Source of the DNA: Vicinamibacterales bacterium
GTDB taxonomy: Bacteria; Acidobacteriota; Vicinamibacteria; Vicinamibacterales; UBA2999
Length of the DNA stretch: 60,330 nucleotides
Direction of reading: 5' to 3'
NCBI GenBank assembly: GCA_036802945.1
Contig: DAIRVG010000018.1
Coordinates: 1-60,330 of the forward strand
In this document: piece after piece, positions 55,081 to 60,330 of the stretch
Position numbering within the stretch: the first letter of the stretch is position 1
Layout of the letters: each line of letters opens with the position of its first letter
The notes under the pieces: generated by a model
Told to the model about the DNA's origin: nothing
Databases searched by the model: none
Seen by the model: the letters and a program-made list of their open reading frames with translations, nothing else
Made by a program: the position numbers and the translations under genes

Positions 55081-55467
55081 CTACTGGTAGAGAAACTTAT
55101 GGCCGGTTAAGCTCCCCAGTTCGTACCACGTTGTAATGGGCGGCGGCTCGTTCGCCGGCGCCTCACCAAACGTGATCATCGCGGTCCTTGGCAGGTTCCT
55201 CGGCCGCTCGATCGGGTTGGTCAACCCCCGATAGAACAGCTTCGTACGATCCGCATTCCGTACCTCGATGACGTCGAGCGTCGAGTGGCTGTCCATCACG
55301 TCGAATGAATACGTCCCCGCAGGCAGCAAGACACCCGGGAGCGACACCGCCCTGCTGAACGTGAGCCTGTTCTCGTGACCGAAGGCCCACACGTGGCTCG
55401 ACGCCGCCACGACGAGGCCGAGCACCAGCATGCCGCACGCAACCCGCACCGACTTCCAATTCATCAT
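55081..55467 (-). CDS. Small exported protein, tandem paralog 1
   Basis: Signal peptide; HENRLTFSRAVSLPGVLLPAGTYSF...WYELG...GHKFLYQ; AAGGAG RBS. Confidence 0.88.
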   Translation of the reverse strand: MMNWKSVRVACGMLVLGLVVAASSHVWAFGHENRLTFSRAVSLPGVLLPAGTYSFDVMDSHSTLDVIEVRNADRTKLFYRGLTNPIERPRNLPRTAMITFGEAPANEPPPITTWYELGSLTGHKFLYQ

Positions 55468-55490
55468 TTCCGTATCTCCTTGCCCTTAAC

Positions 55491-55516
55491 AACGCTTCGT
55501 AGGACGGACTCTTACA
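55491..55516 (-). promoter_or_regulatory. Candidate ECF-sigma promoter, copy 1
   Basis: TGTAAG-N16-CGTT(GTT). Confidence 0.65.
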
Positions 55517-55563
55517 GGTGGGGTGACGCTGCGGCGCTGACTACGGCGAAATGACCACGGCTC

Positions 55564-55588
55564 CCAGCTCCCACGTGATGGGAGTTGG
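55564..55588. terminator. Hairpin downstream of paralog 2 (CTCCCA family)
   Basis: CCAGCTCCCA-CGTGA-TGGGAGTTGG. Confidence 0.45.
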
Positions 55589-55617
55589 AAGCTTGGTCGT
55601 TGAAGAGTCGAGCGCTG

Positions 55618-56004
55618 TTACCGATAGAGAAACTGGTGGCCGAGTGAGTCGCCGATCTCGTACCACGCTGCGATCGGCGGCGGCTCGTTCGCCGACGTTT
55701 CACCAAAGACAACCGCCGTCGTCTTCGACATACCCGCCGGGCGCTGCACCGTGTTGGTGAACCCCATGTAGTACACCTTCGAGCGGGCCTTGTCCCGCAC
55801 GAGCACGATATCGAGCGACGACGTCGACCCAGCCAATTCGAACGTGTAGGACCCCGCGGGCAGTACGACGCCCGGGAGCGCGACCGGCCGGCTGAACGTC
55901 AGGTTGTTCTCGTGGCTCACACCCCAGGCGTGGCCCGACGCGACCACAAGAAGACCGAGCGCCACTGTTCCGCAGGCTATCCGCACCGTTTTCCAATTCG
56001 TCAT
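55618..56004 (-). CDS. Small exported protein, tandem paralog 2
   Basis: HENNLTFSRPVALPGVVLPAGSYTF...WYEIGDSLGHQFLYR; AAGGAGG RBS. Confidence 0.88.
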   Translation of the reverse strand: MTNWKTVRIACGTVALGLLVVASGHAWGVSHENNLTFSRPVALPGVVLPAGSYTFELAGSTSSLDIVLVRDKARSKVYYMGFTNTVQRPAGMSKTTAVVFGETSANEPPPIAAWYEIGDSLGHQFLYR

Positions 56005-56028
56005 CTCCGTATCCTCCTTGCCCCTAAC

Positions 56029-56054
56029 AACGTCGGCGGAGTGTCGGTCTTACG
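56029..56054 (-). promoter_or_regulatory. Candidate ECF-sigma promoter, copy 2
   Basis: CGTAAG-N16-CGTT(GTT); spacer sequence diverged but length kept. Confidence 0.65.
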
Positions 56055-56199
56055 GGCGAAGTGAGCACGACGGGGACTGCAGAGCCGGACGTTGCACCGG
56101 CCGCCGGGCTGCGAATGTGTCAACCACGAACGTCACGAAGCGTACGAAGCAGTGAATTGCTTCGTGCGCTTCGGATCTTCGTGGTTCAAGTTTGGAGAC

Positions 56200-56304
56200 G
56201 TAGAGGCGGGTCTCTAGACGGCGACGTAGAGGCGGGGTCTCTAGACGGCGACGTAGAGGCGGGTCTTTAGACGGCGACGTAGAGGCGGGTCTTTAGACCC
56301 GCCT
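56200..56304 (+). repeat. Four tandem copies (26,27,26,26 nt) of a GTAG-type REP
   Basis: GTAGAGGCGGGTCTYTAGACGGCGAC x3, then the complete palindrome GTAG-AGGCGGGTCT-TT-AGACCCGCCT; no spacers. Confidence 0.9.
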
Positions 56305-56315
56305 ATGCGTTGGAG

Positions 56316-56699
56316 CTACTGGTAGAGAAACTGGTGGCCGATTGAGTCACCGATTTCGTACCACGTTGCGATCGGCCGCACCTCATTTGCGCGCGCTTCG
56401 GCAAAGGTCACCGGCGTGTCCTTCGACATCCCCTTCGGGCGCTGAACGAGATTCGTGAACCCCATGTAGAACACCTTCGTGCGCGCGCGGTTGCGCACGA
56501 TCACCACGTCCATCGACGACTTCGAGTCCACCAGATCGAACGAGTACGCTCCAGCAGGCAGCACGACGCCCGGGAGCGCCACCGGTCTGCTGAACGTCAG
56601 CTGGTTCTCGTGGTTGACGAACGCGTGGCCCGATCCGGTCATGAGCAGAGCCAGCGCCGCAGCTCCCAGTGCAATCCGCACCAACTTTGAATACTTCAT
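56316..56699 (-). CDS. Small exported protein, tandem paralog 3
   Basis: HENQLTFSRPVALPGVVLPAGAYSF...WYEIGDSIGHQFLYQ. GGAGG spacing favours ATG 56699 over 56705. Confidence 0.88.
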   Translation of the reverse strand: MKYSKLVRIALGAAALALLMTGSGHAFVNHENQLTFSRPVALPGVVLPAGAYSFDLVDSKSSMDVVIVRNRARTKVFYMGFTNLVQRPKGMSKDTPVTFAEARANEVRPIATWYEIGDSIGHQFLYQ

Positions 56700-56722
56700 A
56701 TCCATTCCTCCCTGCCTTGAAC

Positions 56723-56748
56723 AACGTTGCGTAGGACGGATTCGTACA
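56723..56748 (-). promoter_or_regulatory. Candidate ECF-sigma promoter, copy 3
   Basis: TGTACG-N16-CGTT(GTT). Confidence 0.65.
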
Positions 56749-56792
56749 GACGTATGATTACGACCTGCTCCGCAAATAGGCCAGAAACTCGA

Positions 56793-59700
56793 ATGACCGA
56801 CCCGTTAGTCGGCACTGCAGTTGCCCATTACGAGGTACTAGCAAAGCTCGGTGGCGGCGGCATGGGTGTCGTCTACACCGCGCGCGACGTCCGCCTCGGG
56901 CGACTTGTCGCGCTCAAGTTCCTCCCGCCACAGTGGAGCCACGACGAGAGCGCGAAGCAGCGTTTTCTTCGCGAGGCTCAAGCCGCTTCGGCGACCCACC
57001 ATCGCAACATCTGCACGATTCATGACATCGAGACCGCGGCCGACGGCCAGTTGTTCATCGTCATGGCGTACTACGAAGGCCAGACGCTGAAGCAGAAGCT
57101 CGAAGCTGGCCCACTACCGATCGAAGAAGCCGTGGAGATCGCCGCGCAGGTCGCGGAAGGTCTCGCCAAAGCGCACGCGGAAGGCGTGGTCCATCGCGAC
57201 ATCAAACCGGGCAACCTGATCATCGTCGAGGACGACGTCAAGATCCTCGACTTCGGCCTGGCAAAGTTCGCGAACGCGCTGCAGCTCACGATGGAGGGCT
57301 CGACGCTGGGAACGGTGGCTTACATGTCGCCCGAGCAGACGCGCGGGGAGGAGGCGGACGCGCGAAGCGACATCTGGGCAGTGGGCGTCGTGCTCTACGA
57401 GATGCTCGCTGGCGCGCTGCCGTTCAAAGGCGCCTATCCCGAAGCGATTTCTCACGCAATCCGCAACGATCCCATGCCGCCGATGCGCACTCCCGGGCGC
57501 GACATTCCTCCAGAACTGACTCGGATCATCGAGCGCGCGCTCGCAAAGGATCCGGAGGAGCGCTTTCAAAGTGTGCGGGAGCTAGCGCGCGATCTCCGGC
57601 TGCTGCAAGGCCGCACCATCCCGCTTGACCTGCTCACGGCGCCCATTAATGCGCCCGCGTTGCGGATCACGCCGCCGCGACGATGGTGGCGATCGCGTGC
57701 GGCGCTTGTGACCGCGGGGCTCCTGATCGGCGCAGGCATCGGTGTGCCGCTCTGGATCTTCGCGCCCGTCGCGCGTGTGCCGGTCGTAGTCGCTCCCGTC
57801 GTCAATCAGACCGGCTACCCGGAGCTCGACACCTACCGTGCGGCATTGACCGCAGAATTGATCGCGGAGCTGTCAGGTTCAGCAGTGGTGCGTCCGGTTC
57901 CGTACGATCGAGAGCTCCAGATTCTTCGCCGGTTCAGGGACGGCGGGGAGGATATTTCGAGTCGCGAGGCAATCCAGGCCCTCACGGTCAATACCGGTGC
58001 GCGGATCGTCATTGCGCCGACGCTCCTGTATGAGAACGGGGCGTGGCGAGCGCGCGGTGAGTTCCGCGAGGCGGCAACCGCAACCAATGCGGCGGTGCGG
58101 GAGACCGCCCCCGTCGTGTCGTCGCTGGTCAAGGAGACTGCCTACCGACTGATGCCGCAGCTGACGGCGGGCATCGAGGAGCATTTCCTTGCGACGGGCA
58201 CACGTCGGGCGCGCATCGCCTATTTCCTGCGGGCACTGATTGGCCGGACTCCTCCGGCGCCGGCCGTTCGAATGGGCACTCTTGATGCGGCCGCCGAGTT
58301 CGAGCGGGGACTCGACGCGTACGAACGGCTCGAGTACGGCACCGCATTGCGGTTCTTCACCAGTGCCGCGGCACTCGATTCGCGAAATCCCTTGCCCATC
58401 GCATGGCGTAGCCGGGTCGCTCACATCATGCGCCGCGATGACGAGGCCGCCGACGCGGCGCAGCAGGCGGGTCGCCTGATGGCTGCGAAGCTGTCCGCCT
58501 CGGATCGGACGTTCCTCGAAGCCGTGCTTGCGGAGTCACAAGGCGATACGGCGACCGCGGACGCGCGATATCACCAGTTGGCTCAAGACGTTCCCGATGA
58601 GGTGCGATGGGCAATCGAGCTTGGCGCATTTCAGGATCGGCGGAATCTCAACGCCGACAGCGTGGCGAGCTACCAGCACGCGCTCTCGCTTGACCCGCGG
58701 TTGATCAGGCCGCACCTCGAGCTCTGCCGCCTGTACAACCGCCTCAACGAGACCGCCGATGCGAAAACCCAAGGACAACAGGCGCTCGCCCAATATCGCG
58801 CGATCGCCGATCGCGCGGGCGAGGTGCAGTCGTTGTTCTGTCTCACCGACGCCTTCCGTGTTGGCGACGACGCGGACCATAAGGAGGCGCGTCGGCTGGC
58901 TGACGCCGCGCTCATGCTGGTGCAAAACAACCCCGAGTCGTTCCAGCTGCCGCGCGCCCATTACTACGTCGGCAACGCCGCGTACGTGGGGGGACAGCTC
59001 TCAGAAGCGATCGCGTCATGGCAGGAATCAGTGACCCGCGCCCGTGCCGTCGACAACCGCCCCATCCAACCACTCGACTTGATGAACATGGGAGTGACCT
59101 ACGAAAGGCTCGGACAGCGGGCGCTCGCGGCGAGCCACTTCGCCGAGAGTTCGAAGGCGTATGAACGCCTCGGAGACGAGGCGCGTGCCGCGCAGACCCA
59201 GGCCAATAGCGGCGCACTCCTGGTCGAATACGGTGACAAACCGCAAGAAGGCCTGCGCGATCTTGAAAACGCCCTGGCAGTCTCGCGCAAACTGGGGGAC
59301 AAGAACTTCGAGGCATTTTGCCTGCAGGTCATTGCAGCCTATTACCGGTATGCCGGTCGCCATGCTGAAGCCGAGCGGACTTTCAATCAAGCGATCGCGA
59401 TTTCCAGGGAACGGGACCTCCAGGACGACATCGCGCTGCTCACGATTGACGTGGCGCGTTCGCGCTTCGATCGCGCAGACTATGCGAGCGCGAGGGATCT
59501 GTTCGTGCAGGCCATGGGGGATGGATCGGGCCCGCGAACGACCGATGCACGGATCCGCCTCGCCCGCGTCGACGTCCGGCTTGGGGACTTCCACGCCGCC
59601 ACGCAGGAGCTCAAGACCGCCGAAACCGAATTCGCCGCAGGACATGGGGATCGCAACCTCGCGCCGCTACTCGAGGTCGTTCGTGGTGAGCTGGCGCTCG

Positions 59701-60197
59701 CGTCAGGCGCCGCTCAGGATTCACGCGCGTATTTCGAGAGAGGGGCAGCAGTGTGGGTCGACGATCGACCCGACGCCGCGGCTGTTGAGGCCCGCGCCTA
59801 TCTTGGCCTGCTCGACACGCGCCAGGGCCGGACGTCGTCTGCGCGACAGGCACTGGAGTCGAGCCTCATACAGGCCGGCAGAATGGGCCGCTACGGGCTG
59901 GAGGTCCGCTGCCGCGTGTATCTCGCCCAGCTCGATGTCTCACAACGACAGTTCGCTGCCGCCGCCGATCGGCTCCGCAACATTCCGGCCGATGGCGAGC
60001 GCGCGCTTGGCCCCGAGTTGCAGGCCCAGGTTCACTATTTGCGCAGCCAGGCGCTCAAGGGAATGGGCGAGGTCGCGGGAAGCAAACGGGATGAAGAGGC
60101 GGCGCGACGATTTCTTCGAGATCTCACGACCTCCTTGCCGGAGAAGTACCGCGCGGGCTTCGCGGCGCGGGCGGACCTGCTCGTGCCCGCCATCTGA
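56793..60197 (+). CDS. Hanks-type Ser/Thr protein kinase with TM helix, TolB-N-like domain and extracytoplasmic TPR array
   Basis: LGGGGMGVVY, VALKFL, HRDIKPGN, DFGLAK, YMSPEQ, SDIWAVG; one TM helix; helical repeats to the C-terminus. Start trimmed to ATG 56793. Confidence 0.95.
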   Translation: MTDPLVGTAVAHYEVLAKLGGGGMGVVYTARDVRLGRLVALKFLPPQWSHDESAKQRFLREAQAASATHHRNICTIHDIETAADGQLFIVMAYYEGQTLKQKLEAGPLPIEEAVEIAAQVAEGLAKAHAEGVVHRDIKPGNLIIVEDDVKILDFGLAKFANALQLTMEGSTLGTVAYMSPEQTRGEEADARSDIWAVGVVLYEMLAGALPFKGAYPEAISHAIRNDPMPPMRTPGRDIPPELTRIIERALAKDPEERFQSVRELARDLRLLQGRTIPLDLLTAPINAPALRITPPRRWWRSRAALVTAGLLIGAGIGVPLWIFAPVARVPVVVAPVVNQTGYPELDTYRAALTAELIAELSGSAVVRPVPYDRELQILRRFRDGGEDISSREAIQALTVNTGARIVIAPTLLYENGAWRARGEFREAATATNAAVRETAPVVSSLVKETAYRLMPQLTAGIEEHFLATGTRRARIAYFLRALIGRTPPAPAVRMGTLDAAAEFERGLDAYERLEYGTALRFFTSAAALDSRNPLPIAWRSRVAHIMRRDDEAADAAQQAGRLMAAKLSASDRTFLEAVLAESQGDTATADARYHQLAQDVPDEVRWAIELGAFQDRRNLNADSVASYQHALSLDPRLIRPHLELCRLYNRLNETADAKTQGQQALAQYRAIADRAGEVQSLFCLTDAFRVGDDADHKEARRLADAALMLVQNNPESFQLPRAHYYVGNAAYVGGQLSEAIASWQESVTRARAVDNRPIQPLDLMNMGVTYERLGQRALAASHFAESSKAYERLGDEARAAQTQANSGALLVEYGDKPQEGLRDLENALAVSRKLGDKNFEAFCLQVIAAYYRYAGRHAEAERTFNQAIAISRERDLQDDIALLTIDVARSRFDRADYASARDLFVQAMGDGSGPRTTDARIRLARVDVRLGDFHAATQELKTAETEFAAGHGDRNLAPLLEVVRGELALASGAAQDSRAYFERGAAVWVDDRPDAAAVEARAYLGLLDTRQGRTSSARQALESSLIQAGRMGRYGLEVRCRVYLAQLDVSQRQFAAAADRLRNIPADGERALGPELQAQVHYLRSQALKGMGEVAGSKRDEEAARRFLRDLTTSLPEKYRAGFAARADLLVPAI

Positions 60198-60280: not shown

Positions 60281-60330
60281 ATGGGATACGGAGAAATCGG
60301 CGGCGGTGGAAGCGTTAAATGGCTGGTGGT
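60281..60330 (+). CDS. Start of a downstream gene (partial, cut by window edge)
   Basis: GGAGG-N5-ATG; MGYGEIGGGGSVKWLV... Confidence 0.55.
   Translation, partial: MGYGEIGGGGSVKWLV

Follow-up and report, generated by a model that had tools for sequence, protein, structure and literature searches.

To our knowledge, the control by kinases of sigma factors of the extracytoplasmic function (ECF) type is understood only for group ECF43, in which phosphorylation makes up for an absent negative charge; that charge is retained in several further kinase-linked ECF groups, and we know of no account of what phosphorylation does there. The closest characterized system to the locus described here is, by analogy, the PknS/EcfK pair of Xanthomonas citri. 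ECF43 sigma factors have no acidic DxxD in region 2.2 and carry a QTTA motif whose Thr is phosphorylated (PMC13147305, PMC8999054); PknS, a transmembrane kinase with periplasmic tetratricopeptide repeats (TPRs), phosphorylates EcfK directly, linker sites included (PMC13147305). Groups ECF59, ECF61, ECF62, ECF217 and ECF283 are also encoded beside Ser/Thr kinases and without anti-sigma genes, keep a DAED-like motif (Casas-Pastor 2021, PMC7826278; PMC8999054) and have Ser/Thr residues in or near it (PMC7826278, PMC8999054). Here we analyze a stretch of 60,330 nucleotides from a Vicinamibacterales bacterium (assembly GCA_036802945.1, contig DAIRVG010000018.1; hereafter the window), at the right end of which a receptor-type Hanks Ser/Thr kinase gene (hereafter the TPR kinase) diverges from an array of three genes encoding small, predicted exported paralogous proteins. 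We propose that this kinase is the membrane-sensor part of a conserved two-kinase/ECF cluster of Vicinamibacterales, a reading to which, taken as a whole, we assign a probability of roughly 0.55.

The first-pass annotation of this DNA had suggested that the kinase may activate an ECF sigma factor reading the paralog promoters, had remarked that the window holds no ECF gene and had advised looking beyond position 60330. The remark is literally true, the window being a whole contig (C18) that ends 133 bp past the kinase stop; the last 55 bp of C18, however, recur exactly as the opening 55 bp of contig C61, where the sigma gene (ECFx) follows in the same cluster, under a promoter motif common to it and the paralogs. 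It had simply been hidden on the next contig by the fragmented assembly. The genes from the kinase to the sigma factor are as follows.

56793..60197, plus strand: receptor-type Hanks Ser/Thr kinase gene (the TPR kinase), 1134 aa, from matches to the Pfam Pkinase and TPR families and from homologue N-termini
60281..60330, continuing on C61, plus strand: start of GYGE1 (MGYGEIGGGGSVKWLVV...), the small cytoplasmic protein gene after the kinase
C61:393-764, plus strand: GYGE2, a small gene after GYGE1 on the same strand as the kinase
C61:1707-826, minus strand: sKin, a soluble Hanks kinase of 293 aa with no transmembrane helix or sensor domain
C61:1797-2426, plus strand: ECFx, an ECF sigma factor of 209 aa, divergent from sKin

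The order on C61 after the kinase is GYGE1, GYGE2, sKin (minus), ECFx (plus) and mdh (minus), and L001, the nearest relative, has the same order on a single contig of 1.98 Mb; its kinase is 91-98% identical. ECFx lies ~1.9 kb from the TPR kinase; because only 90 bp separate it from the divergent sKin and 86 bp from mdh, no open reading frame (ORF) for an anti-sigma factor fits between sKin, ECFx and mdh, and none is present. The catalytic motifs of sKin are complete. An origin of sKin and the TPR kinase by duplication in situ was considered and rejected, the two not being each other's closest paralogs (all kinase pairs are ~40-46% identical). The GYGE proteins share an N-terminal MGYGE.GGGGSV.W, a central FRVxLR and a C-terminal Q.xVxW signature; the family has no match in Pfam or NCBIfam, and a profile search with it found none among the sequences of the PDB. 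Their position makes them candidate substrates or adaptors of the kinase.

Linkage of these genes was followed through 17 loci with an ortholog of the TPR kinase (the window's own, L001, L002+L032, L016, L027, L033, L017/L035, L036, the P0104 contig, L043-L049 and G123), the sensor domains of which are 33-91% identical to that of the window kinase. sKin adjoins the TPR kinase in all 17, an ECFx ortholog lies 1-4 kb from it in all 16 that could be assessed, and one or two GYGE ORFs follow it on the same strand in every locus with readable DNA. At one of these loci (L036) the island occupies another chromosomal neighborhood, not that between sucC and mdh, with kinase, GYGE, sKin and ECFx still together; the survival of the set after relocation speaks for a functional unit and against inherited synteny. 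Across the order, TPR-kinase orthologs occur in 9 of 151 genomes, the paralog family in 45 and ECFx-family sigma factors in 78, and the TPR kinase is present in nine of the ten order-sample genomes with an sKin ortholog. A chance or purely syntenic neighborhood, in which the kinase would have nothing to do with the paralogs or any sigma factor, is very improbable: some adjacency is to be expected in a genome with 37 Hanks kinases and ~40 ECFs, and the place of the island between the conserved sucC and mdh favors inherited synteny, but a kinase lies within 300 bp in 11 of the 31 paralog loci retrieved with the paralog alignment, in at least four architectures and against ~1% expected, and the kinase-sKin-ECFx trio is kept in the relocated island.

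The link between the sigma factor and the paralogs is provided by a shared promoter motif. The paralog genes and the motif copies before them are listed here.

55081..55467, minus strand: paralog 1, 128 aa, predicted to be exported and all-beta
55488..55516, minus strand: putative ECF-type promoter of paralog 1, TGTAAG-N16-CGTTGTT, position weight matrix (PWM) rank 1
55618..56004, minus strand: paralog 2, 128 aa, predicted to be exported and all-beta
56026..56054, minus strand: putative ECF-type promoter of paralog 2, CGTAAG-N16-CGTTGTT, PWM rank 15
56316..56705, minus strand: paralog 3, 129 aa, predicted to be exported and all-beta, divergent from the kinase
56720-56748, minus strand: putative ECF-type promoter of paralog 3, TGTACG-N16-CGTTGTT, PWM rank 9, inside the gap between kinase and paralog 3

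Each paralog is thus preceded, on its own strand and ~20 nt before the Shine-Dalgarno (SD) sequence, by YGTAMG-N16-CGTTGTT, a strict form that occurs three times in the whole genome; ECFx is preceded by TGTTCG-N16-CGTTA, ~35 nt before its SD/ATG. Among ~14 million positions scored with a PWM trained on other genomes only, the three paralog promoters take ranks 1, 9 and 15 and that of ECFx takes rank 16, and the degenerate form of the motif, with 153 occurrences in 13.97 Mb, is expected 6.6e-4 times per 60-nt window. Among the 31 paralog loci, at least 19 paralog genes, belonging to many genomes, are preceded at the same position by nGT(T/A)(C/A)G-N16-CGTT, the spacing being constant and the spacer variable; the motif is also found upstream of the ECFx homologues in 10-11 of 11 loci, and within the islands it is almost confined to positions before paralogs and ECFx. 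One bipartite motif with fixed spacing before both the sigma gene and the paralogs is the sequence pattern of an autoregulated regulon. Since the motif is shared and autoregulation is common among ECFs (PMC7826278), the simplest reading is that ECFx transcribes both itself and the paralogs, and on the strength of these motifs we consider it likely that ECFx reads these promoters. Neither the kinase nor the paralogs gave a promoter in a scan for the sigma-70 consensus, and the further paralog copies of the genome, on C3, C109 and C5, are without the motif.

Elsewhere in the same genome, a second ECFx-family sigma factor (C3:78074, 51% identical to ECFx) has its own promoter, TGTTAG-N16-CGTT; the region C3:78074-80300 consists of this sigma gene, a run of N and a transmembrane kinase gene. 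An apparent ECF-kinase fusion ORF at C3:78137-79441, which would have made a Rosetta-stone argument, was discarded as an artefact of the N run between the two genes. A high-scoring copy of the motif also occurs at C3:72243, 6 kb upstream of this sigma gene and before a region of low G+C content at third codon positions (GC3). At C157:13634, AGGAGG comes after GTACG-N16-CGTTA, and then an ORF that starts with GTG and whose N-terminus resembles a signal peptide (VRRLAIVVALLVF), possibly a further member of the ECFx regulon judging from these signals.

ECFx is a genuine ECF sigma factor by profile: it scores 70.7 bits against the ECF model TIGR02937 (cut-off 42.9) and 37.8 bits against Sigma70_r2 (cut-off 24), and has the sigma2 and sigma4 domains only. 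The first-pass annotation had pointed to ECF43-like or other kinase-associated ECFs; an ECF43-like protein is contradicted by region 2.2, which reads GSLDTGDLVQE: the acidic patch DxxDxxQE is kept and a Gly aligns with the phospho-Thr of ECF43. ECFx and its C3:78074 paralog both read (S/A)LDT(G/H)DLVQ(E/D) here. The neighborhood is that of ECF43, with a kinase gene nearby and no anti-sigma gene; the intact DxxDxxQE and the Gly at the phospho-Thr position place ECFx outside this group, as judged from its motif. Thirteen other kinase-linked ECFs of the genome do have the ECF43-type motif (HTLQ[A/T/P]TALV, no acidic residues, Thr conserved); for 11 of them the distance to a Hanks kinase domain is less than 400 bp, and for two it is 1.6-2.4 kb (C24:28148-29718, C188:6729-8206 and C155:3253-4805 are examples), an unusually large set of such pairs for one genome. 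The best NCBIfam subfamily match of ECFx is the planctomycete TIGR02984, at 76 bits far below the cut-off of 183.75. By motif and neighborhood ECFx appears to fit the less studied kinase-associated ECF groups that keep the acidic motif. In a sample of 20 distant family members (41-56% identical), a Hanks kinase lies at 236-347 bp in ten and within 3 kb in 14, and all 20 keep the Thr within (D/E)TxDLVQ(D/E). The Thr of LDTGD and a TSPLE sequence in the linker between sigma2 and sigma4 are invariant across 22 ECFx orthologs. Linker phosphosites matter in EcfK (PMC13147305), and for this reason we regard the LDTGDLVQE Thr and the linker TSP as candidate phosphorylation sites, nothing more.

The TPR kinase is encoded in an open frame of 1156 codons at 56727-60197 on the plus strand. 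ATG 56793 (MTDPLVG) was chosen as its start over TTG 56727 because, in an alignment with 71 full-length homologues, conservation begins a few residues before DPLVG; more than 160 full-length ortholog clusters are ~1130-1150 aa long. Its parts are the following.

56829..57608, plus strand: cytoplasmic catalytic domain, residues ~13-272, with K42, HRD134, DFG153 and SPE179
57699..57770, plus strand: the only transmembrane helix, at residues 303-326 after RRWWRSR, predicted by a Kyte-Doolittle scan and AlphaFold2 (AF2)
57777..58196, plus strand: juxtamembrane, predicted periplasmic alpha/beta domain, residues 329-468, with invariant P335, N338 and QTG
58281..60191, plus strand: TPR-like solenoid of ~34 helices, predicted to be periplasmic, residues 497-1133; Cys645 and Cys683 are invariant

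The protein matches Pfam Pkinase (PF00069) with an E-value of 1.8e-50, and all catalytic motifs are intact (GGGGMG at 20, the VALK Lys42, HRD134, DFG153, SPE179); together with a bilobal fold these make it a Hanks-type Ser/Thr kinase. In Foldseek searches the modeled kinase domain superposes on PknB with TM-scores of 0.84-0.90, 37-39% identity and an E-value of 6e-15, while a fold search with the whole kinase was dominated by matches to the catalytic domain and yielded no information on the sensor part. The AF2 model, built from a 72-sequence alignment (mean predicted local distance difference test score, pLDDT, 88.2), orders the protein into the kinase domain, a disordered linker (281-301), the transmembrane helix (302-322), the alpha/beta domain (329-468) and the solenoid (497-1133); residues 303-326, with the Arg-rich flank RRWWRSR on their N-terminal side, are the only segment above 1.6 in the Kyte-Doolittle scan. 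The alpha/beta domain is modeled with a pLDDT of ~90 in the order beta-alpha-beta-alpha-alpha-beta-beta-beta-alpha and has no match in Pfam; one homologue of the kinase carries the Joint Genome Institute (JGI) name 'TolB-like protein'. The solenoid is an uninterrupted, all-helical run of ~640 residues with a pLDDT mostly above 90, and TPR_12, TPR_1, TPR_2, TPR_8 and TPR_21 match the kinase over residues ~640-1005, TPR_12 at 59 bits (cut-off 30.1) and TPR_1 at 29.3 bits (cut-off 27.8). The protein is accordingly predicted to be a transmembrane receptor Ser/Thr kinase with one transmembrane helix and a large C-terminal domain outside the cytoplasm. Cys645 (58725-58727) and Cys683 (58839-58841) are invariant in the 72 orthologs and lie in neighboring helices of the solenoid; they could form a disulfide, consistent with a periplasmic location. 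The description of an intact Hanks kinase with one transmembrane helix and a large extracytoplasmic TPR region was therefore upheld by Pfam, motifs, Kyte-Doolittle scan and AF2 alike, as was the placing of the kinase start ~90 bp from paralog 3, with promoter copy 3 in the shared intergenic region: the gap is 87 bp between ATG 56793 and the paralog-3 ATG at 56705.

We propose that the elements of the cluster, i.e. the TPR receptor kinase, one or two GYGE proteins, sKin, the divergent ECFx with no anti-sigma gene and one to three paralogs, would work together as follows. ECFx would autoregulate and drive the paralog genes, and the kinases would set its activity through phosphorylation on Ser or Thr. 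In the receptor kinase, the alpha/beta and TPR part on the periplasmic side would take up a signal and relay it to ECFx, either directly or via sKin and/or GYGE, and would thereby give the system a periplasmic input that the sensorless sKin does not have, the two kinases acting in parallel or as a cascade. Because ECFx keeps the acidic sigma2.2 patch, phosphorylation probably modulates it and does not make good an absent charge as it does in ECF43. All mechanistic steps that go beyond the genomics are inferred. That the TPR kinase acts upstream of ECFx we rate as evenly balanced. A fully specified chain, in which the TPR receptor kinase, with GYGE as adaptor or substrate, would act on sKin and sKin on the acidic-patch ECFx, with the exported products feeding back on the TPR sensor and phosphorylation falling on the DTGD Thr or the linker TSP unlike the ECF43 charge switch, is speculative and, with all its links, rather unlikely.

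A number of observations weigh against this proposal. Two islands (L003, L004), both lying between mdh and sucC, have ECFx, sKin and a single paralog but lack the TPR kinase, and no kinase lies within 5 kb of six ECFx-paralog pairs, all from one genus. Because these smaller islands are without the TPR kinase or any kinase, the sigma/paralog pair appears to be the core and the kinases additions to it, and the core does not require the TPR kinase. Neither kinase gene has an ECFx-type promoter, and the C3:78074 sigma factor could also read the paralog promoters. The LDTGD Thr and the TSP are just as invariant in kinase-less ECFx copies, and no Ser/Thr position was found that discriminates kinase-linked from kinase-less copies; with its DxxDxxQE intact, ECFx may be intrinsically active, a possibility noted for the acidic motif of non-ECF43 groups (PMC8999054). 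Finally, all the linkage evidence comes from one bacterial order, in which shared ancestry inflates the counts. The kinase-less pairs (L037-L042) have ECFx orthologs 65-71% identical to ECFx, followed by a paralog and lying beside an EF-G-like gene, and GTTCG-N16-CGTT stands before both sigma gene and paralog. With respect to the first-pass annotation, the proposed link of the kinase with an ECF stands insofar as ECFx is linked to it in every assessable locus, and needs correction insofar as sKin is the direct partner of ECFx and the TPR kinase an accessory; likewise, the co-occurrence of kinase and paralog family that it had advised testing is seen in an adjacency that recurs across the architectures counted above, with the reservation that ECFx-paralog pairs also exist on their own.

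Part of this evidence suits another arrangement, in which sKin alone would be the cognate kinase of ECFx, and the TPR kinase and GYGE a separate signaling cassette that acts on GYGE or on an unlinked substrate and just happens to lie in the same island. In every island, including the two that have no TPR kinase, the gene that faces ECFx across a common divergent promoter region is sKin and not the TPR kinase, and in all loci examined GYGE comes directly after the TPR kinase in the same orientation, which suggests a two-gene unit. The TPR kinase, on the other hand, was never met away from sKin and ECFx in the 17 loci, relocated island included, it accompanies sKin in nearly all of the order-sample genomes that have it, and sKin, having no sensor domain, needs an input. 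We consider this division into two systems unlikely, if of some weight. It is also conceivable that phosphorylation plays no part in the control of ECFx, the sigma factor being autoregulated, intrinsically active and subject to transcriptional control, with the kinases acting on other targets; the intact acidic motif, the presence of the same promoters on the kinase-less ECFx-paralog pairs and the identity of the candidate phosphosites between kinase-linked and kinase-less copies would all agree with it. We hold this to be quite unlikely given that the ECFx family is strongly kinase-associated over a wide divergence (14 of the 20 distant members, and 17 of 17 TPR-kinase islands), that ECFx has no anti-sigma gene beside it and that the Thr inside DTxD is conserved across the family.

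The presumed output of the system, the exported paralogs, may also bear on its input. Each of the three has a signal peptide, and they are 54-68% identical pairwise; AF2 models paralog 2 as a 10-strand all-beta domain with a pLDDT above 90 for residues 31-128. A fold search of the PDB with the paralog returned nothing significant (best E-value 1.4, TM-score below 0.3), the family profile has no match among PDB sequences, and nothing in Pfam or NCBIfam scores above threshold. The nearest approach is to DUF2911 (PF11138), with weak matches in 16 of 39 family members (best E-value 0.003), all under the gathering score; paralog 2 reaches 13.6 bits at best against a gathering cut-off of 27. Both families are small secreted beta-rich domains, the scores of the paralogs all lying below the Pfam threshold. 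TPR domains generally bind proteins, and the periplasmic TPR domain might bind the exported paralogs so that the output feeds back on the sensor kinase, an addition that would be compatible with the cluster as proposed. The kinase divergently adjoins a paralog in 8 of the ~17 ortholog loci; all the islands seen to have more than one paralog (the window's own, L001, L002, L016, L027) also have the TPR kinase, TPR-less islands having single copies, a coincidence that we take as a weak hint of a link between paralogs and sensor; and two more TPR proteins stand beside paralogs, namely a kinase on C3 and an anti-sigma factor at L011 (see below). Against this, about half of the TPR-kinase islands have no paralog beside the kinase, or none within 7 kb (L036, L043, L044, L048, L049), the three paralog-adjacent TPR regions have no detectable sequence similarity, and the paralog family extends far more widely (45 of 151 genomes) than the TPR kinase (9 of 151). 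We regard such feedback as improbable.

Within the array, a 26-bp unit is repeated 3.9 times (96% matches) at 56197-56298, between paralogs 2 and 3, with the terminal palindrome GGCGGGTCT..AGACCCGCC. Long forms of the family with one or two beta domains and a low-complexity linker are encoded at L028:7329-8639, C109:15777-16631 and C5:70346-71086; those of L028 and C109 end in LP(E/R)TAS, a hydrophobic helix and a basic tail, an arrangement resembling a sorting signal.

Paralogs also occur beside kinases of other kinds. At C3:27042-30131 (ortholog L009), an 850-aa Hanks kinase that has no hydrophobic segment, and whose C-terminal region is TolB-like and TPR-bearing, has a paralog just downstream on the same strand, followed by Crp-like and STAS-domain genes; this paralog is without the TGTWMG-N16-CGTT motif. 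At L005, L011, L014 (and L022), a paralog stands divergent to an operon that encodes a short kinase, a sigma factor of ECF-like type with sigma2 and sigma4 just under the Pfam cut-offs, and a zf-HC2/TPR anti-sigma factor; the paralog promoter there is GGAAA-N16-CGTCT, and both sigma factor and motif are unlike those of the ECFx islands. A common origin of the TPR regions of the window kinase, the C3 kinase and the L011 anti-sigma factor was considered and dropped, no similarity being found beyond the kinase domain.

Set against the described systems, the window kinase is built like PknS, with an N-terminal cytoplasmic catalytic domain, one transmembrane helix and a periplasmic TPR region, and the nearby ECF with no anti-sigma gene recalls both PknS/EcfK and PknT/EcfP of Vibrio parahaemolyticus, in which activation is by direct Ser/Thr phosphorylation. 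EcfK and EcfP carry the uncharged QTTA, whereas ECFx has the acidic DxxDxxQE (LDTGDLVQE). Unlike in these two systems, the paired gene of the sigma factor is here a sensorless soluble second kinase, and the receptor kinase comes with a small conserved protein, GYGE; small exported beta proteins are the predicted output, in place of the type VI secretion system (T6SS) or polymyxin-resistance genes of the two ECF43 systems. A nearer instance of the ECF43 arrangement is offered by the 13 ECF43-type pairs of the same genome, adjacent genes for an ECF and a Hanks kinase, many of the kinases large and TPR-bearing; their sigma factors have HTLQ(A/T/P)TALV, and ECFx and its C3:78074 paralog do not. 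With ECF59, ECF61, ECF62, ECF217 and ECF283, ECFx shares the kinase neighbor, the lack of an anti-sigma gene and the acidic motif; these groups, however, were described from Planctomycetes and Actinobacteria and are experimentally uncharacterized, and ECFx remains far below the TIGR02984 cut-off. The two-kinase logic has a reported parallel in Myxococcus xanthus (discussed in PMC6213207), where the membrane-associated Hanks kinase Pkn8 is said to act through the soluble Hanks kinase Pkn14 on the transcription regulator MrpC, as the TPR kinase may act through sKin on ECFx; there the target belongs to the Crp family of regulators instead of being a sigma factor, and the genes do not form a single cluster. 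Coming from soil Acidobacteria, an abundant group, the cluster described here is a small and clearly bounded system in which to test the control of acidic-patch ECFs, with a defined promoter and sigma factor, two candidate kinases of which one has a sensor, a conserved small partner and a simple exported output. What is new with respect to PknS/EcfK is the non-ECF43 sigma factor, the second, soluble kinase, the GYGE partner and the small exported outputs.

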